A stretch of 60,603 bases of DNA, filler included, from Sandaracinaceae bacterium (GTDB taxonomy: Bacteria > Myxococcota_A > Polyangia > Polyangiales > JADJQN01), in assembly GCA_947483975.1 (NCBI GenBank). It is 4 parts of 4 records of this genome, joined end to end, with 100 filler letters (N's around TTAATTAATTAA, not from the genome) between each part and the next. Parts side by side here need not be neighbours in the genome. Positions count along the whole stretch, not along the records: positions 45,576 to 60,603 come from CANKOL010000101.1; 3 more parts are not named here. The stretch is one strand, 5' to 3'. A model generated the notes under the pieces. That model ran no database searches. It had not been told where the DNA came from and saw nothing but the letters and a program-made list of their open reading frames with translations. The position numbers were made by a program, and so were the translations under genes. Below are positions 15,109 through 60,603 of this stretch, piece by piece (the first letter of the stretch is position 1; every line of letters begins with the position of its first letter).

Positions 15109-15208
15109 NNNNNNNNNNNNNNNNNNNNNNNNNNNNNNNNNNNNNNNNNNNNTTAATTAATTAANNNNNNNNNNNNNNNNNNNNNNNNNNNNNNNNNNNN
15201 NNNNNNNN
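15109..15208. other. Artificial contig linker
   Basis: 100 nt of N with TTAATTAATTAA (stops in all frames) at 15153-15164. Confidence 0.99.
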
Positions 15209-30300: not shown

Positions 30301-30400
30301 NNNNNNNNNNNNNNNNNNNNNNNNNNNNNNNNNNNNNNNNNNNNTTAATTAATTAANNNNNNNNNNNNNNNNNNNNNNNNNNNNNNNNNNNNNNNNNNNN
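30301..30400. other. Artificial contig linker
   Basis: 100 nt N with TTAATTAATTAA. Confidence 0.99.
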
Positions 30401-45475: not shown

Positions 45476-45575
45476 NNNNNNNNNNNNNNNNNNNNNNNNN
45501 NNNNNNNNNNNNNNNNNNNTTAATTAATTAANNNNNNNNNNNNNNNNNNNNNNNNNNNNNNNNNNNNNNNNNNNN
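45476..45575. other. Artificial contig linker
   Basis: 100 nt N with TTAATTAATTAA. Confidence 0.99.
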
Positions 45576-46487
45576 CGCAGAGCCCGCGCCCGCCGCGGCG
45601 CAGAACGCGGCGATCGCGGGCGCCGCGTAGCTCAGCCCCTCGCCGCGCTCCGTGGCCGAGTTGACCACGTTCACGACGAAGCAGCGGCCGCTCCATTGAT
45701 AGTCCATCGCGCCCGAGTCGAGCACGCCGACGAGCTGTCCGAGGTCGTTGAACACGCCTGAGCCCGAGTTGCCCGCGAACGCGTCCACGCTCGCGGTGAA
45801 GGTCCGCGGTCCGCTCGAGATCACCGCGCCGTTCGACGCGATCTTGATCGGGATGCCGTCGGGGTGCCCGATCAGCGTGAGCGCTGTGCCCGTGGCGAGC
45901 GGCGCGACGGGGCCCGCGAACGCCGCGGGCGTGTGCCCGACGACGTCGCGATCGAGCTCGATCACCGCGTAATCGACGGTGCCGTCCATCGTCCGCACGA
46001 CGACGCGCGAGCAGGTGTAGACGTCGTCGGAGGTCAGCGGCGCGAGCACGCCGGGCGACTCGTAGCGGAGGCCGAGCACCCAGGCGTCGGTGCCGGCGCA
46101 GTTGCGCGCCGACGCGATGCAGTGCCCGGCGGTGAGGATGTGCCGATTGTCGATCAGCGTGCCCGAGCACGACGCCGCGGTGATCTGGTCGGCGAAGCGC
46201 TCGCCCGTGCAGAGCTGCGCCGCCTCGCCGAGCGTCGTCGCGCTCGTGACGCGCACGTGCGCCGGATCGCTCTGGTCGAGGTCGTAGGTGCTGACCTGCC
46301 CCGCGATCGCAGACTCCGCGAGCGCGCGCAGCGACGCGCTCGAGCTCTCGTAGGGCTCGACGCGGTCGTCGACGTCGTAGACGACGGGCGCGCGCGCGGC
46401 GCCTACCTCGTCCTGCGTGGCGCAGGCGGCGAGGGAGAGCAAGAGCGCGAGTCCGAGGCGGTCGGGTGAGCCGGTGAAGAAGGTCAC
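45576..46487 (-). CDS. Trypsin-like (S1) serine protease lipoprotein, 3'-truncated
   Basis: 'LSLAAC' lipobox; 'CSGTLI...LTAGHC', 'DYAVI', 'GNSGS' triad; GTG 46487 lies 7 nt after TACACT. Confidence 0.87.
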
Positions 46488-46613
46488 GCAGCCGAGTGTA
46501 GCGGCAGTTCGTGTGGATGCGTGCGAGTCGAGCGTTGCCTCGCGCGCGTCTCGGAGTGCGACCCTACGATGGTCAGTGGCACGCACGCGGCGCCCCTCGC
46601 GTGAGCGCTCCCC

Positions 46614-48467
46614 TCAGACGAGCGCGGCTCGCACCGCCGCGAGCAGCGCCGTCGCGCTGAACGGCTTGGCGAGCACGGCGCGCGCGTCCCACGCCGCCGT
46701 GCCGGAGGCCGCGCCGCGGAGCGGATAGCCCGACATGAACAGCACCTTGAGGCCCGGCTGTTGGCGCTTCAGCCGCTCGGCCAACACAGCCCCGGTCATG
46801 CGCGGCATCACCATATCGGTCAGCAGCAGGTCCACGGTCGTCGTCGCGGCGAGCGCCAGCGCCTGCTCGCCGTCCGCCGCGTCGAGGACGTCGTAGCCAG
46901 CGGCGGTGAGCGCGCGCCGCACGATCTTCCGAATCGCAGGCTCGTCCTCGGCGACGAGCACCGTCCCATGCGCGCGGCCCTCGCGCGGCGCAGGCGCGCT
47001 CGGCGGCGGAGCGACGGTCGGTGTCCCGCTCGCGAGGAAGAAGACCGTGAAGGTGGTCCCCTGGCCGACCTCGCTCTCGACGAAGACGTGTCCACCGCTC
47101 TGCTCGACGATGCCGTACACCGTCGCGAGCCCGAGGCCCGTGCCGCGGCCGACGTCCTTCGTGGTGAAGAACGGCTCGAACACATGAGTCAGCAGCTCAT
47201 CGGGGATCCCGACGCCCGAGTCCTCGACCTCCAGCGCGATGTAATCCTCGTCGCCGCCGACGCCCGCGCGCTCCGCCTCGTCCGCCGACACCGCGCGCGT
47301 CCGGACCGAGAGCGTGCCGCCGCCCGGCATCGCGTCGCGCGCGTTCAGCGTCAGGTTCATCAGCACTTGCTCGAGCTGCCCGCCGTCGAAGCGCAGCTGG
47401 AGGCGCTCGGGCGCGAGCGTGAGCTCGAGGTGCACGTGCTCGCCGATCAGCCGCCCGAGCACGCGCGTCGTGTCCGAGACGAAGCGATTGAGCTCGAGCT
47501 CCTCCAATCGCTGGCTCTGCTGCCGACTGAAGCTCAGCAGCTGCCGCGTGATCGAGGTCGCGCGCGCTGCGGCGTCGAGGATCGCCGTCGCGTCCTCGGC
47601 GGCGCTCCCGACCTCGAGGGCGTCGTCGCGCAGGAGCTCCGCGTGGCCCAGGATCACCGTCAAGAGGTTGTTGAAGTCGTGCGCGACGCCGCCGGCGAGC
47701 CGCCCGATCGCCTCCATCTTCTGCGCTTGAACGAGCTTCTCCTGCGCCTCGGTCAGCGAGCCGAGGCTCTCGGACAAGCGCAGGTTGGCGAGGGTCAGCT
47801 CGCTGCCGCGCGAGGCGAGCGCCCCCGTCAGCGCCACCGCCTCCAGCGTCCGCCCGACTTGGTTCGCGAGCGCGGACAGGAACGCCAGGTGTCGCGGCGC
47901 GAGCGGCTTGGTCATCACCGAGCGACGTAGCTGCGCGCTCTTCCAGGCGAACACCGAGACCACGCGCTCGGCGTCTCCGCTCGCCATGCGCAGCACCGCG
48001 AGCAGGGAGCCTCCAGCGGGCTCCTGCGGCAAGCCGAGCTCACCCGCCATGGCCAGCGCGGCGGTCACGGCGACGTGCTCGACGGCCCCGAGCGAGAGGA
48101 GCTCCGTCCGCTCCGAGGCGCGTAGCCAGCTCACGAGCGGCGCGTCCGAGTGCAGCACGGCCCGTCGCCCCGCGTCGTCCCAACCCTCTCCACGTTCCTG
48201 CCCGCGGCTGTGCGCGAAGGCAAAGACGCAGTCGACGTGGAAGCTCGCGCGCAGCAGGCGAATCACTCGCGCGACGACGTCGTCCTCGGCGTCGCTCGGC
48301 GATGCGCTCAGCGCGAACTCGGCGAGCGCGCGCGTGTTCGAGAGCTCTTCGTCTAGCTCCTTGCGCGAACGGAAGAGGCGCTGCTCCGTCCGCACGAGGA
48401 CCTTCAGTTGCTCGTCGAGCGCTCGATTCTCTTCGCGGAGTCGCGCGAGCTCGTCATCGCCGCTCAT
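46614..48467 (-). CDS. Cytoplasmic hybrid histidine kinase/receiver coupled to the FIST gene
   Basis: N-terminal coiled coil; 'QKMEAIGRLAGGVAHDFNNLL', 'EPFFTTK..GRGTGLGL', receiver 'VLVAEDE..DMVMP..KPF'; ATG overlaps FIST stop. Confidence 0.92.
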   Translation of the reverse strand: MSGDDELARLREENRALDEQLKVLVRTEQRLFRSRKELDEELSNTRALAEFALSASPSDAEDDVVARVIRLLRASFHVDCVFAFAHSRGQERGEGWDDAGRRAVLHSDAPLVSWLRASERTELLSLGAVEHVAVTAALAMAGELGLPQEPAGGSLLAVLRMASGDAERVVSVFAWKSAQLRRSVMTKPLAPRHLAFLSALANQVGRTLEAVALTGALASRGSELTLANLRLSESLGSLTEAQEKLVQAQKMEAIGRLAGGVAHDFNNLLTVILGHAELLRDDALEVGSAAEDATAILDAAARATSITRQLLSFSRQQSQRLEELELNRFVSDTTRVLGRLIGEHVHLELTLAPERLQLRFDGGQLEQVLMNLTLNARDAMPGGGTLSVRTRAVSADEAERAGVGGDEDYIALEVEDSGVGIPDELLTHVFEPFFTTKDVGRGTGLGLATVYGIVEQSGGHVFVESEVGQGTTFTVFFLASGTPTVAPPPSAPAPREGRAHGTVLVAEDEPAIRKIVRRALTAAGYDVLDAADGEQALALAATTTVDLLLTDMVMPRMTGAVLAERLKRQQPGLKVLFMSGYPLRGAASGTAAWDARAVLAKPFSATALLAAVRAALV

Positions 48468-49666
48468 CGTGTCGGGGGCGTCTCGTACACCGCGCAGAGC
48501 GCCACGGAGTAGTTGTGGAAGAACGGGACTCCATCGACGGGCGCGATCTCGCCGTACGTGTGCACGCCAATCCAGGGGATATCTGCTCCCAAGATCGTCT
48601 GCAGCGGCTCGATCAGCTCGCTCGCCGCGAGCTCCCCGAAGAGGATCCGCCCGCGCCCTGCACAGTCGAATTGCAGCACGAACGCGGGAGTCTGCCCCGG
48701 TGCGGCTTGCCTCAGCGCCGCTGCGCATTCGGTCCCGCTGCCGCGGATCAGCTCCCCGTCTCGGCGAGTCACGCGCACCCTCGTGCCGGTCTCGATGCCG
48801 CCTCCCGGGAAGAACAACGCCCCGTTCTCCTTGTCGAGGACCATCGGAGTGCGAATCACATATCGCGGAGTGTCGCTCGAGAGCATGCGTCGGATATCGA
48901 CTCCGATGCAGAGGTAGATGATCCCCTCCGCGGTCAGGTCCTCCGGGTCGCCGTCCAGGTACTCCTTGAAGACCTCCCACGCGGGGAGCCCATCGATCGT
49001 GAAGACCCAGCCGTCCTGCGCGCGCGTGACGACGCGGTCGAGGCCGACGGTGGTGCAGCCGTGGCTCACGCCGACGTGCAGCGTCGCCGCGCCCCGGAGG
49101 ACGAAGCCCGCGACCGCATCGGAGACCACGCGCTCGTCGAGGTACTGGTGCGTCTTCTCGAAGAGCATCGCGTCGCCCGCGGAGCCCCCGACGATCGGCA
49201 CGCTCCTCGGCAGCTCCGCCGCGAGCCCGTCGATCAGCGCGCTCGCGTTGCCTCGAATGCCGTCCGGCAGGATGACGACGCACACCGGAGCTGCGCCGTC
49301 GACGGGGCCGCACAGCGTCGCGATGGTGCGCCCCGCCCCCGCGGGATCCGCGTGATAGCCCTCGACCAGGAATGGCTCGAAGCGCACTGAGTCGCTGCTC
49401 ACCGCGAGCACGGCGACGGCGAATTCGACCTCGTGTGTCGCGCTCCCCCCGATGACGCCTTCCCCAGAGCACCCCGAGAGGCGCGCGCCCGGGAGCACGC
49501 CAGCAATCGCCGCGAGCACCTCCGCCTGCGGATATGCCCCCGTCGCGAAGACGAGCGCGAACGTCGCCGCGTGGTCGCCGAGTGAGCGAGATGCCGCCTC
49601 GGCGGCTGCTCGGCCTGCCTCGCTCGCATCTGTATGCCGACTCACGCCGACGGCTGCCCTGAGCAT
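48464..49666 (-). CDS. FIST-domain signal protein (NosP-like)
   Basis: FIST_N 'GCSGEG', 'GGSAGD'; FIST_C 'FDCAGRG', 'GVHTYGEIAP...FHNYS'. Confidence 0.9.
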   Translation of the reverse strand: MLRAAVGVSRHTDASEAGRAAAEAASRSLGDHAATFALVFATGAYPQAEVLAAIAGVLPGARLSGCSGEGVIGGSATHEVEFAVAVLAVSSDSVRFEPFLVEGYHADPAGAGRTIATLCGPVDGAAPVCVVILPDGIRGNASALIDGLAAELPRSVPIVGGSAGDAMLFEKTHQYLDERVVSDAVAGFVLRGAATLHVGVSHGCTTVGLDRVVTRAQDGWVFTIDGLPAWEVFKEYLDGDPEDLTAEGIIYLCIGVDIRRMLSSDTPRYVIRTPMVLDKENGALFFPGGGIETGTRVRVTRRDGELIRGSGTECAAALRQAAPGQTPAFVLQFDCAGRGRILFGELAASELIEPLQTILGADIPWIGVHTYGEIAPVDGVPFFHNYSVALCAVYETPPTR

Positions 49667-49803
49667 GTCTTCCTATTCCGCGCTAACTCGCCGCTCGACG
49701 CGGTCCCCGGGAAAGGGAGCTGGAACACCAGAATATCGCAACCGCGGCCGTGCGTCGATAGCGACGGCGGCGTGCGCGCGCGACGCGACCGCGCCCACTC
49801 GCG

Positions 49804-51780
49804 TCAGTCCGGCGCGAGGAGCGCCGCCGTGATGATGTTGAGCTTGTAGCGCTCCTTCGCGATCTGCTGAATCGCCGCGGCGATGTGGGGATTGTCGCGG
49901 AGGATCCGGCTGAAATCGGCCCGCTGCAGCACGAACAGATCGCACGCCCGGCGCGCGCGCACGTCGGCGGTGCGTGGCTTCGACATCAACACGCCGATCT
50001 CTCCGAAGATGTCCCCGTCGGACAGCACCTTGAGCACCTGCCCAGTGTCGCTCAGCACCTCGACCTTGCCGCGCGCGAGCAAGTAGAGCTCCTGACCGAG
50101 CTCGCCCTTGCGGATGATCAGCTCGCCCGCCGCCACCTGCTTCGAGCGCAGCGCCATGATCACCTGCTCGAGGAAGACCATGTCGCCGTCCTTGAAGAGC
50201 GGCACCTTGCGCAGCACCTCCTCGGTGACGACCTCGTGCCAGCGGCGCCCGTCCTTCGCGACGAGATCCGCGGCCGCCTTCGGCCCCCAGCTGCCGCGCG
50301 CGTAGTTCGGAAACTCCGCGGGCGTCTCCGCCCAATGGTCCATGATCGGCTGCGCGACGCGCCACGCGGCCTCGACGAGATCGCCGCGGGAGAAGAGCGT
50401 CGCGTCCCCGTGCGAGCACGCGTAGAGCATCACCTCGTAGCCCGTGTAGCGCGACGCCTTGAACGCGTCGCCGTACGCGAACTTCATGTTGACCGGCTGG
50501 AGCCTCATCGTCGGCCCGGGGATCTTCGCCTGGAACTGAATCTCGATGCCCTGATACGGCTGAATGTGGAAGATCAGCCGATTCGCGTTGAGGGCGGGCA
50601 CCGCCGTCCCGCGAAAGAGCACCTCGGGTGCCTTCTTGAACTCGACGATGATCTCCGTGCCGCGCTTCCACAGCGCCTTGCCGGAGCGCAGGTAGATGGG
50701 CACTCCCTCCCACCGCCAATTGTCGATGTGGAGGCGCGCCGCAGCGTAGGTCTCCGTCTTGGACGCCGGATTGACGTCCTTCTCCTCACGATAGCCGGGC
50801 TTGAGTGGGTTGCCCTTGTCGTCGACGGAAGGGCCGTATTGGCCGCGCACGACGAAGCGCTCGACCTCTTCCGCCGAATACGCGCGGACCGACTCGAGCA
50901 GCTTCGCCTTCTCGTTGCGGATCGCGTCAGGCGCGAACGAGCCGGGGACCTCCATGCACAGATACGCGAGCATCTGGAACATGTGATTCTGCATCATGTC
51001 GCGGAGCACCCCGGAGGAGTCGTAGTAGCCAGCGCGTCCGCCGACGTCGACCGCTTCGGAGACGTTGAACTGGATGTTGTCGATGTAGTTCTTGTTCCAG
51101 AGCGGCTCGAACATCCCGTTCGAGAAGCGGAACGCGAGCAGGTTCTGGACGGTCTCTTTTCCGAGGTAGTGATCGACTCGGTAGATCTGGTCTTCACGCC
51201 AGTTGGCGAGCACGTCCTCGTTCAGCTTCAGCGCGGACGCGAGATCGGTGCCGAAAGGCTTCTCGACGATGATGCGCTTCCAGCCGTCGCCGTCCTTGAA
51301 GCCGCTCTGATGCAGGTTGTCGCAGAGCAGTCCGAAGAAGCGCGGCGCCGTCGCGAAGTAGAAGAGCACGTTGCCCTCCGCCGCGTACTCCGCGTCGAGT
51401 CGCTTGACCTCGCCCTTGAGCGTCTCGAACACGCCCAAGTCGCTGAACCCGCCTTGCACGTAGTGAAAGCGGCTCACGAGGTCGTCCCAGACGTCCTGCT
51501 CGAACTCGCCGCGCGTGTGAAAGGCCTTGATGTCTTCGCTCATCCGCGCCCGAAAGGACTCGGTCGTCAGGGCGTCCATCGCCGTCCCGAGCAGCGCGAA
51601 GCCCTTCGAGAGCAGCCCGTCGCAGGCGAGGTTGTAGAGCGCGGGCACGAGCAGGCGCTTGGTGAGGTCGCCTGACGCACCGAAGATCAGCATCACGTGC
51701 GGCGCGCACGACGGACTCGCCTCAGGCGCGTCGGCGCCGAGCGTGCGGAGGACTTGAGCGGCGGGGGCGTCGGCGGTCAT
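49804..51780 (-). CDS. zwf: Glucose-6-phosphate dehydrogenase with C-terminal cyclic-nucleotide-binding domain
   Basis: 'GASGDLTKR', 'EKPFG', 'RVDHYLGKETVQN', 'RDMMQNH'; C-terminal 'VPLF...IIRKGELG..LY....G.VEV...FGEIG....PRTADV'. Confidence 0.95.
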   Translation of the reverse strand: MTADAPAAQVLRTLGADAPEASPSCAPHVMLIFGASGDLTKRLLVPALYNLACDGLLSKGFALLGTAMDALTTESFRARMSEDIKAFHTRGEFEQDVWDDLVSRFHYVQGGFSDLGVFETLKGEVKRLDAEYAAEGNVLFYFATAPRFFGLLCDNLHQSGFKDGDGWKRIIVEKPFGTDLASALKLNEDVLANWREDQIYRVDHYLGKETVQNLLAFRFSNGMFEPLWNKNYIDNIQFNVSEAVDVGGRAGYYDSSGVLRDMMQNHMFQMLAYLCMEVPGSFAPDAIRNEKAKLLESVRAYSAEEVERFVVRGQYGPSVDDKGNPLKPGYREEKDVNPASKTETYAAARLHIDNWRWEGVPIYLRSGKALWKRGTEIIVEFKKAPEVLFRGTAVPALNANRLIFHIQPYQGIEIQFQAKIPGPTMRLQPVNMKFAYGDAFKASRYTGYEVMLYACSHGDATLFSRGDLVEAAWRVAQPIMDHWAETPAEFPNYARGSWGPKAAADLVAKDGRRWHEVVTEEVLRKVPLFKDGDMVFLEQVIMALRSKQVAAGELIIRKGELGQELYLLARGKVEVLSDTGQVLKVLSDGDIFGEIGVLMSKPRTADVRARRACDLFVLQRADFSRILRDNPHIAAAIQQIAKERYKLNIITAALLAPD

Positions 51781-51843
51781 GGGGCGGAGTTCCTTCTCGT
51801 CAGCGACACGGGGCACCGGGCACGGGACACGAGGCACGAACCG

Positions 51844-52593
51844 TCAACGTCGGCGCTTCTTCGCGAACAACACCCCGGCGAGCACGACGAGTCCGGCGAC
51901 GGCGCCGGCGCCGAGCACCATCCAGAACGACCTCGCCGCGACGACTCCCTCCGGCGGATTGTTCATGCCGAAGACCGCGACGAGCGTCGCGAGCGGAAAG
52001 AAGAACGCGACGAGGCGATTGAGCGTGCGCGCCTCGAGCGTCGCCTCGAGCGCGAGTCGAGCCTGCTCCTCGGAGCTACGCGCCAGCGAGAACTCCATGC
52101 CCGCTCGCGCGTCGTTCGCGACGAGATCCACCGCGCGCTCGACGTCTGCGGCGCGGTCGCGCGCGTTGATCAGCGCGTGCTCGTCGGGCTCCGCGTTCCG
52201 TCCGGCGTCGATCGCCGCGAGCAGGTGTCGGCTCGAGCGCAGCAGCGGATTGACCCAGCGCAGCACCGCGAAGTAGTCGGCAGGTGTCGACGCGCTCTCC
52301 ACCTGCTGATCGAGCGCGTGAATGCTCTTCGCGTACGAGTCGAGGTGCGCCTCGAGCGCCGCGAGTCCGCCGGCCTCCGGGCTGCTCTGCCACTCGCCGT
52401 CGGGCGCGCGCCAGAAGAACGCGCCGTGCCGCACCTCGTCGTCGTCGGGAGTCGGCGTGCGGTGCAGGACGAGCAGCAGGTGTCCCTCCGCGCTGATCGC
52501 GCGCTGACGCCCGGCGGCATCTCCGAGGCGCTTGGTCACCGCCTCGGGGAGCACCCAGCTTGTCGGGAGAAACGAGCGACCTTCGTTCGGCAT
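51844..52593 (-). CDS. Short CorA-like membrane protein
   Basis: Helical domain then two TMs with 'FFFPLATLVAVFGMN' GMN motif. Confidence 0.7.
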   Translation of the reverse strand: MPNEGRSFLPTSWVLPEAVTKRLGDAAGRQRAISAEGHLLLVLHRTPTPDDDEVRHGAFFWRAPDGEWQSSPEAGGLAALEAHLDSYAKSIHALDQQVESASTPADYFAVLRWVNPLLRSSRHLLAAIDAGRNAEPDEHALINARDRAADVERAVDLVANDARAGMEFSLARSSEEQARLALEATLEARTLNRLVAFFFPLATLVAVFGMNNPPEGVVAARSFWMVLGAGAVAGLVVLAGVLFAKKRRR

Positions 52594-52666
52594 CGGGCCC
52601 GAGTCTAGGTGGATGCGCGCCGCGCGTCACCGTCCGTCGCTGCGTGCCGCGCGATCGGCGCCGTGC

Positions 52667-52738
52667 GCTCAGCCGCTCAGCCGCTCAGCCGCTCAGCCGC
52701 TCAGCCGCTCAGCCGCTCAGCCGCTCAGCCGCTCAGCC
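52667..52738. repeat. 8-bp microsatellite (GCTCAGCC)x9 overlapping amylase stop
   Basis: Nine perfect tandem copies counted. Confidence 0.95.
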
Positions 52739-54026
52739 CCTCGCGCACCCAGACCGTCCACTCGCCCCGCTTCTCGTGCGCGACGACCCAGCCCGCGCCA
52801 GGCCCGGTGTAGTCGGAGCCGATCGAAAGCGCGAGCGCGTCCTTGCCGTGCGCGTCCTGCACGATCCCGGCGAAGCCCGAGTGCGCGTCGCAGAGGTCGG
52901 TCCACTCCGACGCGGCGACGATGCCCGCGCGCTGCCGAGCGGCGATCAGCGCGGCGATCTCCTCGCGCATCCCCCAGTCGAAGCAGTCGGGCCAATAGAC
53001 CGAGGGCGTGCCCGGCATCGAGAGCACGAACGCATAAGCGCTCGACTTGAAGTGCGGCGGACACTCCCAGTGTCGCTGCCCGCTGCCCGCGGCACAGGAG
53101 GGAGAAGCGCCGGTGTCGTGGTTGTCCACGTAGGTGACCGCGACCTCGCGGTCGCCGCGTCGTCGGCTCGCGTTGAGGCCGAGTCGCAGGTTGCGTGGGT
53201 CCGCCGTCTGGACCTGCTTCTTCAGCAGGACGTCGTAGGCGCAGCTGCGCGTGTCGCACGCCCAGCCGACGATGCGCGCTCGCTCGTGCGTGCCATAGCG
53301 CTCGATCATCGGATCATCGGGTCGCGTCGGGTCGCCCTGCCAGTACTCGCCCATCGAGAAATACGGCGCTTTCGGGGTCTCCTCGAGGAGCGCGATGACG
53401 TCCTCGACCGAATAGCCCCAGACGAAGTCCCAGCGATATCCGTCGACGCCGCACTCCTCGAGCAGCTCGTTCATCGCGGCTCGGATGCGCGCGTGCACGA
53501 CGGGATAGTCGAGCGCGAGGTCGTTCTCGCCGCGGTCGAAGCCGCCGCCCGTGTCGTGCCCGCCGACCGCCCAACAGGGGCCCGGCCACTCCCACACATC
53601 CTCGCGCATCCTGCTCTTGTCGCGGTGGTTGATGACGACATCGACGATCACGCGCACGCCGAGCGCATGCAGCTTGGTGACCAGCGCGGTCAGCTCAGCC
53701 TTGCTGCCATAGCGGGAGTCGAGGTCGAAGTCGTGCCAGAAGTAGCCCTCCCCGCCGCCGCTCCGCTCGCCCGATTGCCACTCCGAGTCATCCCGCCAGG
53801 GCGGCGGCAAATAGACGATCGTGAAGCCGAGCGCCGCGACCTGCTCGGCCATATCCGTCAGGACTCGATACCAGGACTCCGCGCGCCCATCCATGGTGCC
53901 CGTGCCGCGGGTCTTCACGAGGTTCCAGTGAAACGCCTGCAGGATGACGTCGCCGCCGTCGCCCCGCGCGATCTCGTGGCCTGGGAGCCGATCGACGGTG
54001 CGCCGAGACAGGATGGGCGGGTGCAT
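52725..54026 (-). CDS. GH13 alpha-amylase, maltotetraose-forming (G4) amylase-like, no signal peptide
   Basis: 'DVILQAFHWN', 'GGGEGYFWHDF', 'DVVINH', catalytic 'RWDFV', 'GEYW', 'VDNHDTG'. Confidence 0.87.
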   Translation of the reverse strand: MHPPILSRRTVDRLPGHEIARGDGGDVILQAFHWNLVKTRGTGTMDGRAESWYRVLTDMAEQVAALGFTIVYLPPPWRDDSEWQSGERSGGGEGYFWHDFDLDSRYGSKAELTALVTKLHALGVRVIVDVVINHRDKSRMREDVWEWPGPCWAVGGHDTGGGFDRGENDLALDYPVVHARIRAAMNELLEECGVDGYRWDFVWGYSVEDVIALLEETPKAPYFSMGEYWQGDPTRPDDPMIERYGTHERARIVGWACDTRSCAYDVLLKKQVQTADPRNLRLGLNASRRRGDREVAVTYVDNHDTGASPSCAAGSGQRHWECPPHFKSSAYAFVLSMPGTPSVYWPDCFDWGMREEIAALIAARQRAGIVAASEWTDLCDAHSGFAGIVQDAHGKDALALSIGSDYTGPGAGWVVAHEKRGEWTVWVREGLSG

Positions 54027-54111
54027 GGTGCCGCCAAGATACGCGAGGCGAGGGCGGCGCGCGCGCTCCCGCTCCATGAGCGCGCGCACCCTTACGTGCC
54101 GAGGTGGGAGC

Positions 54112-54663
54112 TCAGGCGGTCTTCGCGGCCTTCTTGGCGTCCCTCTTGGTCGCCTTGGCGTCCTTCTTGGTCGCCTTGGCGTCCTTCTTGGTCGCCTTGA
54201 GCTCCTTCTTGGCCGGCTTCTTCTCCGCCTTCTTGGCGGCCTTCTCCGCCTTCTTGGCGGGCTTCTTCGCTGGCTTTTCCTCGGCCTTCTTCTCGGCCTT
54301 CTTCGGCGCCCGCTCCCAGACGCCGAGCGCGGCGCCGTTCGGATCGACGAACACGCCGACCGCGCCCATCTCCCCGATGGACCTGAACGGCGCGATGATC
54401 TTGGCGCCCGCCTTCTCGGCCTTGGCGAGGGTCTTCTGGACGCTCTCGACCTCGACGTAGGCAAGCCACGCGGTGGGCATCCCAGGCATCGGCTTCGCTT
54501 GGATGCCGCCTCCCGCCGTCTCGTCGCCGCAGTCGATCATCGTGTACGGCGAGCCCGGGCCGGCCATATCCGTGATCTTCCAGTCGAACAGCTTCTTGTA
54601 GAACTTCTTCGCCCCGGCGACGTCGTCGGTGCTCAGCTCGAGGTGCGCAAACGGATTTCCCAT
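54112..54663 (-). CDS. VOC/glyoxalase-family protein with Lys/Ala-rich C-terminal tail
   Basis: 'FAHLELSTDDV..AKKFY..LFDW', 'GGGI', 'W.AYVEV', 'DPNGA.LGVW'; tail of PAKK/ATKKDAK repeats. Confidence 0.88.
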   Translation of the reverse strand: MGNPFAHLELSTDDVAGAKKFYKKLFDWKITDMAGPGSPYTMIDCGDETAGGGIQAKPMPGMPTAWLAYVEVESVQKTLAKAEKAGAKIIAPFRSIGEMGAVGVFVDPNGAALGVWERAPKKAEKKAEEKPAKKPAKKAEKAAKKAEKKPAKKELKATKKDAKATKKDAKATKRDAKKAAKTA

Positions 54664-54917
54664 GTCGTTCTCCCAGCCGTGTGGCGCAGCGACCGTAACA
54701 CGGCGCCGCGCGCGCTGGCCTCTCTGCTGCGGTTCACGACGGCCGCGGGCGCGCAGCGCCGGCGAGGCGGGCGAACGAGCGAACAGGCGAGAGACGACGC
54801 ATGGCACTCCCCGTGGCTGCAGGCCTCCGACCGCTGGGCCCATGCGGAGCTTGGCTCGCGGTGAGCCGTACGACGACAGGACGGCGCCCGGCGCGAGGAC
54901 CGACTATCTTACGCGCC

Positions 54918-57374
54918 ATGTCTCAGCCGAACCTCCCGAAGCACGCTCGCGTCGTCGTCATCGGAGGGGGCGTGATCGGCGCCTCCGTCGCGTATCACCT
55001 CGCCCATATGGGCTGGAAAGACGTCGTGTTGCTCGAGCGCGACAAGCTGACCTCGGGGACGACGTGGCACGCGGCGGGGCTGATGGTGACGTTCGGTTCG
55101 ACGTCCGAGACCTCGACGGAGATGCGCAAGTACACGCGGGATCTCTACGCGCGGCTGGAGGCCGAGACGGGGCAGGCGACGGGCTTTCGGCCGTGCGGCT
55201 TCATCGAGGTCGCGGGCGACGCGGACCGACTCGAGGAGTACCGCAGGGTCTCCGCGTTCAATCGCTACTGCGGCATCGACGTGCAGGAGATCTCGCCGTC
55301 GGAGGTGAAGAGGCTGTTCCCCCTCGCGAAGGTCGATGACCTCCTCGCGGGCTTCTACGTGCCGCAGGACGGTCGCGTCGACCCGGTGGACGTCACGATG
55401 GCGCTCGGCAAGGGCGCGCGGATGCAGGGCGCGACGATCCTCGAGGGCGTGCCCGCGCTCGGCGTCGTGACCAAGCGCGGCGCCGTCGCGGGCGTCGACA
55501 CGCCCTTCGGCACGATCGAGTGCGAATACGTCGTCAACTGCGCGGGGATGTGGGCGCGCCAGCTCGGCGCGAAGAATGGCATCAACATCCCGCTGCAATC
55601 GACTGAGCACTACTACCTGATCACGGGGAAGATCCCCGGCATCGAGCGGGATTGGCCGGTGCTCGAGGACCCGGGTTCGTATGGCTATTTCCGCGAGGAG
55701 GGCGGCGGGCTGATGGTCGGCCTCTTCGAGCCTGTGTGCGCGCCGTGGAAGGTCGGCGGCGTGCCGGAGGACTTCAGCTTCGGCGAGATCCCGCCCGACT
55801 GGGAGCGCATGACTCCCTATCTCGAGAAGGCGATGGCGCGAGTGCCGGTGTCGGCCGAGGCGGGCGTCAAGAAGTTCTTCTGCGGGCCGGAGAGCTTCAC
55901 TCCCGACCTGCGCCCCGTCGTCGGCGAGGCGCCCGAGGTGAAGAACTACTTCGTCGCGGCGGGCCTGAATTCCATCGGAATTCTGACGGGCGGCGGGCTC
56001 GGTCGCGTGATGGCGCACTGGCTCGTCAACGGGAGCCCTGACGTCGACATCACGGGCATGAACATCGACAGACTCCACACCTATCAGTCGAACCCGGAGT
56101 ATCGGCGGACTCGCACGGTGGAGTCGCTCGGCCTGGTCTATCAGTGCCATTATCCGACGAAGTCGATGACGACGGCGCGCGACGCCAAGCGCTCGCCGGT
56201 GCACGACCGGCTCGCCGCGCAGGGCGCGTATTTCAAGGACGTCAGCGGCTGGGAGGGCGCGGACTGGTACGCAGGCAAGGGCGAGACGCCCGACCCCGGT
56301 CCGCTCTCGTGGGGGCGGCAGCGCTGGTTCGGGGTTTGGGAGGCGGAGCATCGCGCCGCGCGCGAGGGCGTGATCCTGATGGATATGTCCTTCATGTCGA
56401 AGTTCCGCGTCGAGGGGCGCGACGCCGGCAGGCTGCTCAATCAGCTCTCGGCGAACGAGGTCGACGGTGAGAGCGGGCGCATCACCTACACCCAGTGGCT
56501 CAACGAGGGCGGCACTCTCGAGGCGGATCTCACGGTCGCCAAGCTCGAGGAGGGGCGGTACTTCGTCGTCGCCACGGACACCGCGCATCGGCACGTCGAG
56601 ACGCGGATGCGGCGCCTCTTCGAGGATGGGCACGCGTTCTGCTCGGACGTGACCTCGGCGTACGCGCAGCTGAACGTGCAGGGGCCGCGCTCGCGCGAGC
56701 TGCTCCAGTCGCTGACGACGGTGGACCTCTCGAACGAGGCGTTCCCGTTCCGCGCCGCGAAGGAGATCGACGTCGGCTTCGCGCGCGCGCTCTGCGTGCG
56801 CATCACGTACCTGGGCGAGCTCGGCTACGAGCTGTACGTGCCCGCCGAGCAGGCGGTGCACGTCTACGACCGGATCGTCGCGGCGGGCGAGCCGCTCGGG
56901 CTGCGGCACGCGGGGCTCAAGGCGCTCGCGTCGTTGCGGATGGAGAAGGGCTATCGCGACTACGGGCACGACATCGACAACACGGACTGCGTGCTCGAGG
57001 CGGGGCTCGGCTTCGCCGTCGATCTGAAGAAGCCGGGCGGCTTCATCGGCAAGGAGGCCGTGCTGCGGAAGAAGGCCGCCGGGCCGCTTCAGCGCCGGAT
57101 TCTGCAGGTGCTCGTCAAGGACCCCGAGCCGCTGATGTTTCACGCGGAGCCCGTGTGGCGCGACGGCAAGCCGGTCGGCTACGTGCGCGCGGCGTCTTAT
57201 GGCTTCTCGCTCGGTGGCGCGGTCGGGCTCGTCATGGTCGAGGCGGGCGAGGCGCTCGATCAGAGGTACGTCGACTCGGGCGTGTGGGAGGTCGAGATCG
57301 CCGGGCGACGCTACCCGGCGATGGCGTCGCTCAAGCCGCTCTACGATCCCGAGATGAAGAAGGTGAAGGCCTGA
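54918..57374 (+). CDS. GcvT-family FAD/folate-dependent oxidoreductase (dimethylglycine/sarcosine dehydrogenase-like)
   Basis: 'VIGGGVIG', 'TSGTTWHAAG', 'GPESFTPD', 'YLGELGYELY', 'SLRMEKGY'. Confidence 0.92.
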   Translation: MSQPNLPKHARVVVIGGGVIGASVAYHLAHMGWKDVVLLERDKLTSGTTWHAAGLMVTFGSTSETSTEMRKYTRDLYARLEAETGQATGFRPCGFIEVAGDADRLEEYRRVSAFNRYCGIDVQEISPSEVKRLFPLAKVDDLLAGFYVPQDGRVDPVDVTMALGKGARMQGATILEGVPALGVVTKRGAVAGVDTPFGTIECEYVVNCAGMWARQLGAKNGINIPLQSTEHYYLITGKIPGIERDWPVLEDPGSYGYFREEGGGLMVGLFEPVCAPWKVGGVPEDFSFGEIPPDWERMTPYLEKAMARVPVSAEAGVKKFFCGPESFTPDLRPVVGEAPEVKNYFVAAGLNSIGILTGGGLGRVMAHWLVNGSPDVDITGMNIDRLHTYQSNPEYRRTRTVESLGLVYQCHYPTKSMTTARDAKRSPVHDRLAAQGAYFKDVSGWEGADWYAGKGETPDPGPLSWGRQRWFGVWEAEHRAAREGVILMDMSFMSKFRVEGRDAGRLLNQLSANEVDGESGRITYTQWLNEGGTLEADLTVAKLEEGRYFVVATDTAHRHVETRMRRLFEDGHAFCSDVTSAYAQLNVQGPRSRELLQSLTTVDLSNEAFPFRAAKEIDVGFARALCVRITYLGELGYELYVPAEQAVHVYDRIVAAGEPLGLRHAGLKALASLRMEKGYRDYGHDIDNTDCVLEAGLGFAVDLKKPGGFIGKEAVLRKKAAGPLQRRILQVLVKDPEPLMFHAEPVWRDGKPVGYVRAASYGFSLGGAVGLVMVEAGEALDQRYVDSGVWEVEIAGRRYPAMASLKPLYDPEMKKVKA

Positions 57375-57389
57375 GCGGCGCGCCCGTCG

Positions 57390-58733
57390 TCAGACGGCGG
57401 GCTTCGGCGCCTTGCCGAGCAGGTTCAGCACGAGGGAGAAGAGCACGACGGCGACGACGCCGAAGAGCGCCTCGGTGTAGAGCAGGGAGGTCGGGCCGGG
57501 CGCTCCGTGGAAGAGGCCGACGACCTTCGCGAGCCAGACGTCGAAGGCGCCCGGAGGCACCGGCGCGCCGCCGCCCGTGGGCGTCGTCGTCGTGCCGAGC
57601 GCGCTGTCTGCGACGCGTCCGAGCAGCAGGCCGAGCCACCAGATCGGGAAGTTCGAGAGAGACGCGAAGAAGCTGTACTTCGTCGCGGCGGACCCCGAGC
57701 CGATGGCGCTGAGCACGACGGCGGTGAAGCCGGAGTACGCGAGGCCGACGGCGAACGAGTAGATCATGTTCCAGCCGATGTACATCGTGACCGTCGCGGG
57801 GGAGAGCCCCATGCCGATGGCGATGAACGCGAGCGCGAGGCCGATCCCTGCGTAGACCGTGCGCGGGTGAAAGCGATCGCAGAGCCAGCCGCCGGCGAAG
57901 CAACCGGCGGTCATCACGACGCCGCCGAAGAGACCCTGCACGAGCCCGACCTCGGTCGCGCCTGCGCCCCAGTGCTTGGCGATCTCGGCCTGCGCGAGCA
58001 CGCCCTGCGCGGCGCCCGTGCCGATCGGCAGCACGCAGAGGAGCGCCGAGAGGAAGCCCGCGCGCGTCTTGAGCATCGCCCACACGTCTCGGACGACGGT
58101 CGTGGTCGCGCCCCACACGCCGCCCGCCGGCTTGTGCGCCTGGATGTCCGGCACCCAGCGGAGCGCGAGGCAGCACGCCATGAACGCGCTCGCCATCAGC
58201 GCGCCTGCCATCCACGGCGCCGGAAGTACTTGGAGCAGCAACAATCCGAGCGCGCCGCCGAACGCCGCGCCGCCGAGGTTGCCCGCTTGGAACCACGCGC
58301 TCACGCGGCCTTGCTCGGCCTCGCTCGTCGTGACGGCCATGATCGCCTCGATGGCCATGCCGACGATCGAGTTGATCAGGCTCGCCGCCGCGATGATCAC
58401 GAGCAGCAGCGGGAGCGTGCGCTCGTTGATCGGCAGGGCGGACATCCCGAAGACGCCGAGGGCCGAGGCCGCGGTCGCGAAGACGTACCACTTCTTCGGC
58501 GAGAGGGTGACGTCGACCATCGGCGCCCACGTCCACTTGAGCCAGCTCGTCAGCAGGTTCGCGCCGTTGAGGAGCGACGTGTCCGTGACCGAGAGCCCGT
58601 TCGCGCTCGCCATGAAGGTGAGCGCGACGCCGACGAAGCCCGAGAGCGCTCCGAACGGGATGTAGAGGAGCGTGTAGACGACCGGGTGCGGTACGCGCAT
58701 CGGCTCGGTGGTCGTGGCTTGGCCAGTGGTCAA
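57390..58733 (-). CDS. MFS transporter (AmpG-like)
   Basis: About 12 TMs; 'WLKWTWAPMVD', 'AATKYSFFASLSN'. Confidence 0.82.
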   Translation of the reverse strand: MTTGQATTTEPMRVPHPVVYTLLYIPFGALSGFVGVALTFMASANGLSVTDTSLLNGANLLTSWLKWTWAPMVDVTLSPKKWYVFATAASALGVFGMSALPINERTLPLLLVIIAAASLINSIVGMAIEAIMAVTTSEAEQGRVSAWFQAGNLGGAAFGGALGLLLLQVLPAPWMAGALMASAFMACCLALRWVPDIQAHKPAGGVWGATTTVVRDVWAMLKTRAGFLSALLCVLPIGTGAAQGVLAQAEIAKHWGAGATEVGLVQGLFGGVVMTAGCFAGGWLCDRFHPRTVYAGIGLALAFIAIGMGLSPATVTMYIGWNMIYSFAVGLAYSGFTAVVLSAIGSGSAATKYSFFASLSNFPIWWLGLLLGRVADSALGTTTTPTGGGAPVPPGAFDVWLAKVVGLFHGAPGPTSLLYTEALFGVVAVVLFSLVLNLLGKAPKPAV

Positions 58734-58797
58734 GGCGGTGTCCTCTGAAGGGGGAGCGACGGTACACGCGCCGCCGCGCGGCGGCTAGCCCGGCGTC

Positions 58798-59772
58798 TCA
58801 GAGCGCGAGGTGAAAGACGCGCTCGACGGGCGGCGGGGCGCTGCAGCGTGGGGGGCTCGCGTACTGCGCGCGCACGACGAGCACGCCGCGCGCGGCGTCG
58901 AGCCAAGCGCTCGAGAGCGACGCTGCGCTCGTCACGTCGCGCCCCTCGCAGCGGGAGACCCGCGGCTCGAGCGTCGCGCGCAGGAGCTCGCGCCTGTCGG
59001 TCGTGAGCGCGACCAGCGTGCCCGTGGACGGGTCGAAGTCGAGGGTGAATCCCGCGGCGGCGCTCGTCCGGTGCGCGCTCGCGCCCGTCGTCCCCGCGGA
59101 GAGCGGGGCGGAGGCGAGCGGCGTGAAGCCACCGTGGGTCATCGCCGCGGTGAAGGCGGTGATGCGCGCCTCGAGCTGCGCCCGCAGCGCGGGAGCGGGG
59201 GCGTCGGCGTCTTCGAGCGTGAGCGCCTCTTCCGGGCTGACGATCAAGTAGTCCTGCTGGGGCGCACCGTCGCTCGCGCGCACGCAGCGCACCAGCAAAG
59301 CGGAGGTCGCCGTCTCGGCGTCGGTGACCGCGAGCGCAACCTCGGTGCCGTCGGCAGAGAGCGCGGGGAGCCCAGCTTCGGTGGGCGTCAGCGACTCGTC
59401 GAGCACGATGCGCGGTCGCTCGCCCCGCGGCGGACACGCGCTCGTCGCGCCGGGTACGCAGACGCGCTCGGGGGGAGCGCCGCTCTCGAGCGGTTGCTCC
59501 GGCGCGGTCGGGGCTGCGCGGGGGCCCGGGAGGTCATACGCGGAGGCACGGAGCGCGTGCTCACAGACGACCGGCGGCAGCGGCTGGGCCGTCGTGGCGC
59601 GCGTGCGCACCGCGCCTCCGCCGCACGCGCAGAGGGCGAGCGAGCAGAGGACGGAAAGCGAAAGCCCGCGCAGGGGAGCCCGCGCGAGCGCGATGGAACG
59701 CAAAAACGCGCGCAGAGTCGGCTGCGCGCGCCACGATCGCGCGCCTGGCCTCGGCTGCCGCGCAGAATGCAC
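58798..59772 (-). CDS. Hypothetical lipoprotein (start uncertain)
   Basis: 'LCSLALCACGGG' lipobox-like; the upstream part of the tracked ORF overlaps rpmG and is spurious. Confidence 0.5.
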   Translation of the reverse strand: MHSARQPRPGARSWRAQPTLRAFLRSIALARAPLRGLSLSVLCSLALCACGGGAVRTRATTAQPLPPVVCEHALRASAYDLPGPRAAPTAPEQPLESGAPPERVCVPGATSACPPRGERPRIVLDESLTPTEAGLPALSADGTEVALAVTDAETATSALLVRCVRASDGAPQQDYLIVSPEEALTLEDADAPAPALRAQLEARITAFTAAMTHGGFTPLASAPLSAGTTGASAHRTSAAAGFTLDFDPSTGTLVALTTDRRELLRATLEPRVSRCEGRDVTSAASLSSAWLDAARGVLVVRAQYASPPRCSAPPPVERVFHLAL

Positions 59773-59798
59773 GGCAGCGAGCGGCGGCGCGACGACCG

Positions 59799-59960
59799 TC
59801 AGCCCTTGCTGATCTTGCCTTCTTTGTGGAGCTTGTGGGTGCGGCACGCGGGGCAGAACTTCTTGATCGAGAACTTCTCGGTCATGGTCCGCTTGTTCTT
59901 GGACGTGTAGTAGTTCGCCCGGGTGCAGGTCTCGCAGGTGAGCTTGATGAGGTCGCGCAT
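59799..59960 (-). CDS. rpmG: 50S ribosomal protein L33 (four-Cys zinc-ribbon form); absent from ORF track
   Basis: MRDLIKLTCETCTRANYYTSKNKRTMTEKFSIKKFCPACRTHKLHKEGKISKG translated by hand. Confidence 0.95.
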   Translation of the reverse strand: MRDLIKLTCETCTRANYYTSKNKRTMTEKFSIKKFCPACRTHKLHKEGKISKG

Positions 59961-60089
59961 GACGTCTTTCCTCGAACGGTCTCCGGCCAGTCGACACGCA
60001 CTGTCGGCTCGAACGTTCTATCGGTCCCCGGGTCGCGGAGAGGGCGGCAGTCTAGCCAGCGCGCCCCCGCCGTCAAGCGTGTTGCGCGG

Positions 60090-60603
60090 CTACTGAGCGA
60101 GTCGCTGCGTCGCGGTGCGGTCCGCGGGGTCGATCCCGAGGGCATCTTGGTACGCCTGGCGTGCGCCCGCGGCGTCGCCCGCAGCCCGCTTCGCGTCGCC
60201 GAGGAGCACGCGCGCCTCGGTGCGCCGCCGACGAAGCGAGACCAGTTTCGAGGCCCATTCCACTGCGCCCGTGGTGTTTCCGGTGCGCAGATACAGCCGC
60301 GCGAGCGCCTCGACGGGGTGCGGGTTGCGCACGGAGAGCTCCGTCGCGCGCAGGAGCAGGGCCGCCGCGCGCCCAGGCTCGGCCAACGACTCGGCCTGGT
60401 CGGTCAGGCGATCGCATTCGGCGTCTGGGTCCGTCCCGGGGTCGGTGGGAACCGCCGCGAGCGCGCTGCCCGCGTCCGGGGCGACCTGCTCGGCGGTGGG
60501 GTCCGGCGTCGGCAGCGGTGTCGGCAGCGGTGCCGGCACGGCAGGTACGTCGGGCACGGCGGGCACATCGGGCACGGCGACTGGCGGGGGCGCGAGCGGG
60601 GCG
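60090..60603 (-). CDS. TPR-repeat protein C-terminus with Pro-rich linker, 5'-truncated
   Basis: PDVPAV/PTPL repeats then TPR-like 'ARVLLGDA....GD..GA..AY..AL.IDP'. Confidence 0.72.
   Translation of the reverse strand, partial: APLAPPPVAVPDVPAVPDVPAVPAPLPTPLPTPDPTAEQVAPDAGSALAAVPTDPGTDPDAECDRLTDQAESLAEPGRAAALLLRATELSVRNPHPVEALARLYLRTGNTTGAVEWASKLVSLRRRRTEARVLLGDAKRAAGDAAGARQAYQDALGIDPADRTATQRLAQ

Follow-up and report, generated by a model that had tools for sequence, protein, structure and literature searches.

A glucose-6-phosphate dehydrogenase fused to a cyclic-nucleotide-binding domain: a candidate second-messenger-gated accessory isozyme of uncultured bacteria

What might a glucose-6-phosphate dehydrogenase (G6PDH) do with a cyclic-nucleotide-binding (CNB) domain attached to its C-terminus? 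The question is raised by a gene, here called zwf-CNB, in a stretch of 60,603 nucleotides (the window) from Sandaracinaceae bacterium (GCA_947483975.1), an uncultured lake bacterium represented by a metagenome-assembled genome (MAG) of 5.29 Mb in 524 contigs, 81% complete. The window consists of four contigs joined by N spacers (15109-15208, 30301-30400 and 45476-45575), so gene neighbourhoods do not extend from one piece to the next, and the context of zwf-CNB is limited to the fourth piece (45576-60603; contig C101, CANKOL010000101.1). We hold, with a little more confidence than doubt, that its product is a cyclic-nucleotide-gated, NAD-accepting accessory isozyme that would work beside a canonical NADP-type Zwf and feed 6-phosphogluconate dehydrogenase (6PGD).

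The predicted protein (P0001) scores 572.2 bits against the NCBIfam zwf family TIGR00871 (cut-off 400.6), and the G6PDH motifs GASGDL, EKPFG, RVDHYLGKE and QNH are all intact (Table 1); the histidine of QNH is the catalytic base in the motif list of PMC8546961 (H240 of Leuconostoc mesenteroides). Core residues 26–516 match the Synechocystis enzyme (9emm) end to end with an E-value of 4.9e-131, which makes it the closest solved relative of the core, and the L. mesenteroides chains follow at about 1e-91. A model was built with AF2 on an alignment of 76 fused sequences (A1), with a mean predicted local distance difference test score (pLDDT) of 79.7 and a predicted template modelling score of 0.77. 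A Foldseek search with the whole model returned G6PDHs only (top match 1h93, E 7.9e-44, TM-score normalized by target 0.84), and model and matches agree on the two-domain G6PDH fold. No solved chain spanning both the G6PDH and the CNB parts was found by sequence search of solved chains or by Foldseek. P0001 is thus most likely a catalytically competent G6PDH.

The C-terminal extension is a sensor domain of well-known type. The Pfam family cNMP_binding (PF00027) matches residues 547–630 with an E-value of 2.5e-20 and 72.7 bits, against a gathering cut-off of 27.5. In the model, the block-mean pLDDT over residues 511–650 lies between 79 and 94, and DSSP assigns a helix at 534–543, seven strands of at least three residues within 545–619 plus one short strand, a cassette helix at 594–598, and helices at 620–629 and 631–645. 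The CNB domain is therefore complete and confidently folded in the model. The joint has practically no linker: residue 515 is the last of the G6PD_C match, and the CNB helices follow from about 518–520. The best solved relatives of residues 518–647 are a regulatory subunit of protein kinase A (PKA; 5kbf, 1e-27) and the cAMP-gated channel SthK (4d7s, 1.8e-26). Gly593, Glu594, Arg603 and Ala605, the residues of the phosphate-binding cassette that contact the cyclic nucleotide, are invariant in all 76 fused proteins, although mean pairwise identity among these proteins is 59.7% in the CNB part versus 75.7% in the core. The residue after Arg603 is Thr here, and in the family Thr (49), Asn (18) or another (9); the sequence of P0001 does not distinguish a cAMP from a cGMP preference. 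The genome itself encodes three class III cyclase domains and gives 17 CNB domain matches. An intact Zwf that continues in frame into a complete CNB domain with the cassette FGE...PRTA, as put forward in the original prediction, is thus what the family models and the alignment also find.

Could the fusion instead be an artefact of assembly or gene calling, or a decaying remnant? The fragmentation and incompleteness of the source MAG speak for such an origin. However, the joint at 50233 is bridged by contigs of lake or freshwater metagenome runs from three studies besides the possible source (Table 1). In the independent strain represented by contig X11, 33 of the 37 differences listed are synonymous third-position changes, 9 of the 10 in the CNB part are synonymous, and 29 more lie beyond those listed; the replacements among the listed ones are I640V, A494T, V244I and N231H. 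This pattern suggests purifying selection on zwf-CNB, its CNB part included, and with the lack of internal stops argues against decay.

The fusion is neither rare nor unique. In a protein search, 7,997 of 8,000 scored candidates passed an E-value of 1e-10, and at least 120 protein clusters (at 90% identity), 74–98% identical to P0001, all have the three Pfam domains. A genome scan with one genome per species (GTDB r232) found 231 stretches encoding a relative, and the results on loci given here come from the best 80. All 80 are titled as MAGs, share 64–84% identity with P0001 and the same architecture, and carry at least eight phylum labels; in 78 the match to the query starts no later than residue 23 and extends at least to residue 645. 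The other two (L059 and L069) start within the first two bases of their contigs, and their matches therefore lack the N-terminal part. In the ESM Atlas, three clusters (83, 59 and 65 members) combine all three domains, and a 109-member cluster of shorter proteins (representative 425 residues) has only G6PD_C and cNMP_binding. Since independent contigs bridge the joint and the architecture recurs in all of the best 80 species-level MAGs and in the 120 best protein clusters, misassembly is ruled out, and we regard an artefact or a remnant as almost certainly the wrong explanation.

A second departure from canonical Zwf lies in the coenzyme site. When residues 30–120 are aligned with the L. mesenteroides chains by phmmer, the alignment is gap-free in this region and places GTAMD on GTARQ (chain residues 43–47; chain number equals query number minus 22), so that Met68-Asp69 stand opposite Arg46-Gln47, just as the original prediction had aligned them by eye. 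This column is Arg in Synechocystis 9emm and Zymomonas 7xhp, as it is in 82 of the 92 unfused Zwf representatives compared. The residue missing here is the one regarded as the chief NADP determinant in published work (PMC4807051, PMC8546961). P0001 thus falls outside the NADP-specific subclass marked by an Arg between β2 and α2 (E. coli R50, L. mesenteroides R46). According to PMC8546961, this Arg is missing from the G6PDHs with the highest NAD specificity, and its absence serves as a classifier; by that rule P0001, along with the crown subclade described below, groups with the NAD-preferring or relaxed isozymes. Position 43 is also altered, being Leu in 76 of 76 fused proteins versus Lys in 83 of 92 unfused ones; counted from G19-D20-L21 of PMC4807051 (G37-D38-L39 here), it is the E. 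coli K25 column. In E. coli Zwf, R50 and K18 supply up to 60% of the NADP+ binding energy, K25 also contributes, and an R50/K18 double mutant loses discrimination between NAD and NADP (PMC4807051). With Met-Asp in place of the Arg and Leu in place of the Lys, NAD+ is most likely an accepted or preferred coenzyme of P0001, which would then yield NADH.

Across alignment A1, position 68 is Met in 26 proteins, Arg in 12, Thr in 9, Asn in 8, Ile in 7, Phe in 5, Leu in 4, Ser in 3 and Val in 2; at position 69, 36 proteins have Asp and 4 have Glu. The combination of a hydrophobic residue (Met, Leu, Ile, Val or Phe) with Asp or Glu is confined to a crown subclade with Myxococcota, Planctomycetota and Methylomirabilota labels, which includes P0001. 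The 12 proteins that keep Arg68 have the forms G[TSV]GRSE, G[YF]ARSE and GTGRTQ, and in five further ones an Arg lies one place later. The coenzyme change is therefore not part of a mechanism common to the fusion. The two features, which the original prediction had treated together, come apart: every fused protein has the CNB domain, and some keep the Arg. Loss of the Arg as a trait of the whole clade was considered and rejected on the same grounds; the 121 proteins closest to P0001 gave too uniform a picture, since every one of them belongs to the crown subclade. With the hydrophobic-plus-acidic form restricted to that subclade, the CNB fusion most likely came first in the lineage of P0001 and the coenzyme site was re-tuned later.

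The genome encodes a second, unfused zwf on contig C222, with the canonical Arg in its loop (GVARR) and a full-length 6PGD gene (gnd) about 1.3 kb downstream. In a survey of carrier genomes (50 of the 80 loci, picked for longer contigs), 48 have at least two G6PD_C matches, while G132 and G145 have one. We compared the best-scoring unfused partners from 20 carrier genomes, all of them plus-strand matches: the column of Met68 holds Arg in 16 by alignment and in three more by eye (VGRRD; L094, L096 and L097), that is, in 19 of 20, and the partner L095 (from G120, a Gallionellaceae-labelled MAG) has no Arg there. With a second zwf in nearly all carriers and the Arg in nearly all partners, the usual set is a canonical Arg-type Zwf plus the fused isozyme, and zwf-CNB is, judged from gene content, an accessory isozyme. 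The suggested gating of all entry into the oxidative pentose phosphate pathway has to be given up, because the Arg-type copy stands beside gnd in this genome and most carriers have a second zwf.

Edd scores above its family cut-off in only 4 of 51 carrier genomes, whereas 6PGD is found in 49 of 51; no Edd above the cut-off was found in the 81%-complete genome of the source bacterium. A link to the Entner-Doudoroff pathway, expected from PMC8546961, was thus rejected as a general rule, and the product is most likely routed to 6PGD rather than into that pathway. Of 81 loci (the best 80 and the window piece), six have gnd as upstream neighbour of the fused gene. In the three closest carriers (L003:160-1881, L004:4452-5867 and L005:3375-4949) it reads GWDAW, and the fused loop is GTAMD or GTAFD; in L074 and L078 (both 1192-2634), where it lies about 5.4 kb upstream on the same strand, it reads FNRT and the fused loop has the Arg. 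In Moorella 6PGDH, whose motif is GYART, the A30D/R31I/T32I mutant has its preference reversed 4,278-fold toward NAD+ (PMC5009329). Seen in two independent lineages and aligned by eye, these pairs are a hint that gnd and the fused zwf may have changed coenzyme together.

Some carriers show other arrangements of the two zwf genes. The roles look swapped in the Gallionellaceae-labelled MAG (L095 and L033), in which the Arg is present in the fused copy (GTGRTQ) but absent at that place from the unfused one. Two Granulosicoccaceae-labelled MAGs (G147:C5 23084-30894 and G149:C25 1736-9543) have gnd, canonical zwf and fused zwf within about 8 kb, and in a Myxococcota-labelled MAG (G111:C68 11658-14852) two zwf genes are divergent neighbours.

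To place P0001 among other Zwf proteins, a quick maximum-likelihood tree was calculated from 76 fused proteins (75 loci and the window) and 10 unfused representatives. Five of the 80 loci were left out: L025, L031 and L067, in which the motif filter found no fused open reading frame, and L059 and L069, in which the reading frame lacks the N-terminal motif. One branch separates all fused proteins (SH-aLRT, an approximate likelihood-ratio test, 100%; stem length 0.51). The gap is also seen in a library clustered at 50% identity: of the best 150 matches, P0122 (73% identity) alone is a full-length fused protein, and the next full-length matches are unfused proteins of about 510 residues with at most 49% identity. 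The phylum labels, which are the submitters', are Myxococcota (27), Pseudomonadota (19), Planctomycetota (11), Methylomirabilota (5), Acidobacteriota (5) and others; on the tree they are clustered yet interleaved, with 12 label changes versus a mean of 40.5 after shuffling, and some are probably binning or naming errors. P0001 falls within a set of 31 tree rows, 27 of them Myxococcota-labelled, and its nearest relatives are from Polyangiaceae- or Myxococcales-labelled MAGs at 84% identity.

Within its own order, the gene is patchy. Some zwf was found in 60 of 101 genomes, but a match that runs through the CNB part in only two: the source genome and G034, a member of another family (75% identity). 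A genome of the same genus (G014, ~94% complete) and one of the same family (G032, ~94% complete) have only unfused zwf genes at 41–45% identity, and in a further member of the family (G042, ~90% complete) no zwf match was found. Identities of 64–84% across phylum labels, compared with 34–48% to the zwf genes of order-mates, suggest a few horizontal transfers followed by vertical descent. We counted as clade-specific any position with one residue in at least 95% of fused and at most 10% of unfused proteins; there are 35, of which 11 lie within residues 444–495, a distribution compatible with a surface co-adapted to the CNB domain, though no proof of one.

Other proteins came to light beside the fused clade. 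P0126, an unfused protein of 498 residues without a CNB domain, is 54% identical to P0001 and shares many residues of the fused clade; its motifs are degenerate (EKP to EGP, the DHYLGKE word replaced, QNH to PNH), and it may be either a dead-enzyme derivative or a pseudogene call. P0132, P0137, P0189, P0192, P0233 and P0225 are other long Zwf-containing or CNB-rich proteins of 624–1011 residues; the long Zwf-containing ones among the best representatives imply that zwf has been fused to other modules as well.

How might the domain act on the enzyme? Binding of a cyclic nucleotide to the cassette, through Glu594 and Arg603, would move the αB/αC hinge and lid. With the cAMP/cGMP-binding domain welded, essentially linker-free, to the C-terminal end of the β+α domain, this motion could be transmitted across the rigid joint, reach the allosteric surface at the C-terminus and so alter activity or oligomeric state. 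The cyclases of the host would then switch the fused isozyme directly, without transcription. OpcA binds Synechocystis G6PDH at the C-terminal end of the β+α domain, a site that PMC11648896 equates with the structural-NADP+ site of human G6PD. Because the closest solved core is the Synechocystis enzyme and the CNB domain starts where that chain ends (residue 531 of 532 in chain numbering, opposite P0001 residue 516), we read the CNB domain as a possible cis-acting counterpart of OpcA.

Several points weigh against a cyclic-nucleotide-gated, NAD-accepting isozyme. Ligand identity, coenzyme preference and physiological role are all deduced from sequence, which gives no direction of regulation (activation or inhibition). 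CNB folds with other ligands exist: nucleosides are the ligands of trypanosome PKA (PMC10959531), and relatives of the CRP/FNR type respond to other signals (PMC2246266). Basic residues (Lys41 and Arg42) still adjoin the coenzyme site, loop motifs are described as insufficient for predicting coenzyme preference (PMC4807051), and the Arg kept at position 68, or shifted by one place, in part of the fused family points the same way. The model has pLDDT below 50 at residues 1–20 and also in the core at residues 408–442. Full-text literature searches returned no study of, and no biochemical data on, any G6PDH-CNB fusion, in keeping with the statement of the original prediction that none was known; all 80 listed carriers being uncultured MAGs is probably the reason why assay reports are lacking.

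These points feed three other explanations. The one we take most seriously, while still thinking it unlikely, is that the coenzyme site remains NADP+-preferring, with neighbouring basic residues compensating, so that the isozyme differs only in regulation. The remaining Lys41 and Arg42, the limited predictive value of loop motifs (PMC4807051) and the 12 Arg-keeping proteins would fit, but a hydrophobic residue plus Asp or Glu replaces the Arg throughout the crown subclade, the second basic residue is gone in all 76 proteins, the adjacent gnd of the three closest loci also lacks the 2'-phosphate-binding Arg (GWDAW, versus FNRT in L074 and L078), and removal of the Arg with introduction of an Asp was part of the change that reversed the preference of Moorella 6PGDH (PMC5009329). 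Less probable again is a CNB domain that binds a cyclic nucleotide but controls assembly, localization or partner binding (dimer-tetramer balance, recruitment), or buffers the nucleotide, rather than controlling catalysis. G6PDHs are dimers or tetramers with a stabilizing C-terminal surface (PMC11648896), conservation of the CNB part, its ligand contacts excepted, is lower than that of the core, and the clade-specific positions near the C-terminus would suit any new contact surface. However, the linker-free joint favours direct mechanical coupling, no conserved neighbouring gene suggests a partner, and a change of oligomeric state normally alters G6PDH activity too, so that much of this explanation merges with gating of the enzyme. 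We give slightly less weight still to a domain that senses another nucleotide, a nucleoside or a metabolite, making the enzyme metabolite-gated instead of second-messenger-gated. The precedents for other ligands (PMC10959531, PMC2246266) and the variable residue after the cassette Arg, which implies that base recognition is not fixed, are set against the invariant ribose-phosphate contacts Gly-Glu...Arg-x-Ala and nearest solved relatives that are true cyclic-nucleotide binders.

If gating by a cyclic nucleotide and acceptance of NAD+ both hold, a wider role can tentatively be sketched, although we consider it doubtful as a whole. The fused gene might be a horizontally spread 'plug-in' that adds to the constitutive, NADP-linked pair of zwf and gnd a parallel branch of the oxidative pentose phosphate pathway, NAD-linked and switched by a cyclic nucleotide. 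On a cAMP or cGMP signal, glucose 6-phosphate, for example from stored or scavenged glucan, would then yield NADH for respiration and not NADPH for biosynthesis, and the adjacent Arg-less 6PGD would complete the branch in the closest carriers.

Bacterial cAMP and cGMP are known mainly for acting through transcription factors, channels and a few enzymes. In our full-text literature searches, no paper turned up in which cAMP or cGMP directly gates a bacterial dehydrogenase of central carbon metabolism at the post-translational level, and the main text of a 2007 census of CNB families contains neither 'dehydrogenase' nor 'glucose' (PMC2246266). The protein combines two well-known modules in an uncharacterized way. 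New here are the accessory-isozyme pattern, the separability of fusion and Arg loss, the change from Lys to Leu at position 43 in all fused proteins, the patchy occurrence in the own order and the co-variation with gnd. If confirmed, the enzyme would be the first known case in bacteria of a cyclic mononucleotide acting directly on a dehydrogenase of central carbon metabolism, and second-messenger signals could affect redox and carbon partitioning within seconds; the family would represent a conserved design for direct second-messenger control of sugar oxidation. For biosensing or metabolic engineering, it could also serve as a natural source of NAD(P)H that a ligand switches on a single polypeptide. 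The fused proteins form a natural series on one scaffold, with Arg, Met-Asp, Asn-Thr and others at the coenzyme-discriminating site, useful for the question of NAD/NADP preference in G6PDH, which PMC4807051 presents as unsettled.

The features of the locus are collected in Table 1. The longest form of the reading frame starts at a GTG at 51837 and has 677 residues. The ATG at 51780 gives 658, and alignments of relatives begin at about residue 1–10 of this shorter form. A 24-nucleotide word at 50246 that some contigs match elsewhere has one other copy in the window, with two mismatches, at 52106, and was taken as chance.

Table 1. Positions in the window of zwf-CNB with its domains and motifs, of contigs bridging its joint, and of the genes downstream.
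Feature	Position	Strand	Remarks
zwf-CNB gene (P0001)	49804..51780	-	658 codons plus stop; one intact open reading frame, no internal stops
Ribosome-binding-like word GAGAAGGAA (AAGGA-type)	51790..51798	-	~10 nt before the ATG; direct sequence inspection
G6PD_N (PF00479), coenzyme-binding domain, residues 32-213	51142..51687	-	Pfam 3.2e-59, 201.1 bits
β1-α1 fingerprint GASGDLTKRLL, residues 34-44	51649..51681	-	GxxGDL motif present, invariant in 76/76 fused relatives
β2-α2 loop GTAMD, residues 65-69	51574..51588	-	Met68 at the usual site of the 2'-phosphate-binding Arg
EKPFG motif, residues 173-177	51250..51264	-	Invariant in 76/76 fused relatives
RVDHYLGKE substrate/catalytic motif, residues 201-209	51154..51180	-	Invariant in 76/76 fused relatives
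G6PD_C (PF02781), β+α domain, residues 215-515	50236..51138	-	Pfam 6e-112, 373.9 bits
QNH with catalytic-base His266, residues 264-266	50983..50991	-	Invariant in 76/76 fused relatives
CNB domain, residues 518-645: N-terminal helices, β roll, αB/αC	49846..50229	-	Pfam, solved-chain matches, AF2 model
Phosphate-binding cassette FGEIGVLMSKPRTA (FGE...PRTA), residues 592-605	49966..50007	-	Gly-Glu and Arg-x-Ala signature present
Bridging contig X6 record 9	49600-50403		No differences
Bridging contig X8 record 19	50098-50341		
Bridging contig X11 record 1	49803-51900		59 differences, no gaps; independent strain ~97% identical
FIST sensor-domain gene	48464..49666	-	137 nt downstream of zwf-CNB
Hybrid histidine kinase/receiver gene	46614..48467	-	ATG overlaps the FIST stop codon

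Reading frames were clustered over the 81 loci, and no conserved operon was found around the fused zwf among them. Shadow reading frames over zwf aside, the commonest neighbours are a GH63/MGH1-like glycosidase (10 loci), a Ser/Thr kinase (7) and gnd. The glycosidase (e.g. L035:4882-7758) has about 900 residues and lies about 130 nucleotides from the fused gene. Upstream of zwf-CNB in the window are a weakly CorA-like protein (E 9.6e-4, under the cut-off) and, two genes upstream, a GH13 α-amylase-family gene; together with the GH63 neighbours the latter is a weak hint of a link to the breakdown of glucan or compatible solutes. The FIST and histidine kinase genes appear, from their overlap, to be translationally coupled, and this pair was not found beside the fused zwf in the 80 related loci; the upstream genes of the window are likewise not conserved in relatives. 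Farther along the piece, a glyoxalase/VOC-fold protein (54115-54663, minus strand) has a long Lys/Ala/Glu-rich, histone-H1-like C-terminal tail.

Among known systems, canonical Zwf enzymes (Synechocystis 9emm, L. mesenteroides 1dpg/1e77, Zymomonas 7xhp) resemble P0001 in core, fold and catalytic motifs. P0001 differs from them in about 140 extra C-terminal residues that form the CNB domain, in Met at the Arg46 site and in Leu in the Lys column of α1. The mycobacterial acetyltransferase Pat also has a CNB domain fused to an enzyme, and cAMP relieves its autoinhibition. The CNB part of P0001 matches the Pat family (NF058543) weakly, at 8.1e-11 and far under the cut-off; Pat belongs to another enzyme class, and its CNB domain is N-terminal (model positions 3-122), in contrast to the C-terminal one of P0001, which makes it a functional analogy only. 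The CNB domains of the SthK channel and of PKA regulatory subunits, the best matches of residues 518–647 (1e-27 to 5e-26), have the same cassette signature. Their outputs are an ion pore and a kinase, not a dehydrogenase, and their ligand preference is not transferable.

The Arg-less isozymes described in PMC8546961 (Pseudomonas putida G6PDH-B with His68, and enzymes of K. hansenii, B. cepacia and P. fluorescens) lack the β2-α2 Arg as P0001 does, and the pattern described there for Pseudomonas, an Arg-less copy beside an Arg-bearing isozyme in the same genome, is shared. Those isozymes have no sensor domain, the substitution in P0001 is a hydrophobic residue plus Asp and not a His, and the paper ties the NAD-type isozymes to users of the Entner-Doudoroff pathway, unlike the carriers of fused zwf with their scarcity of Edd (4 of 51). 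OpcA (PF10128) has no match in the 81%-complete source genome, which leaves P0001 outside the OpcA-dependent enzymes. The OpcA-regulated cyanobacterial G6PDH (PMC11648896) is under allosteric control of a protein module that sits, like the CNB domain of P0001, where the β+α domain ends C-terminally. OpcA is a separate, redox-sensing protein, whereas the module of P0001 is fused in cis and is predicted to be a nucleotide sensor.

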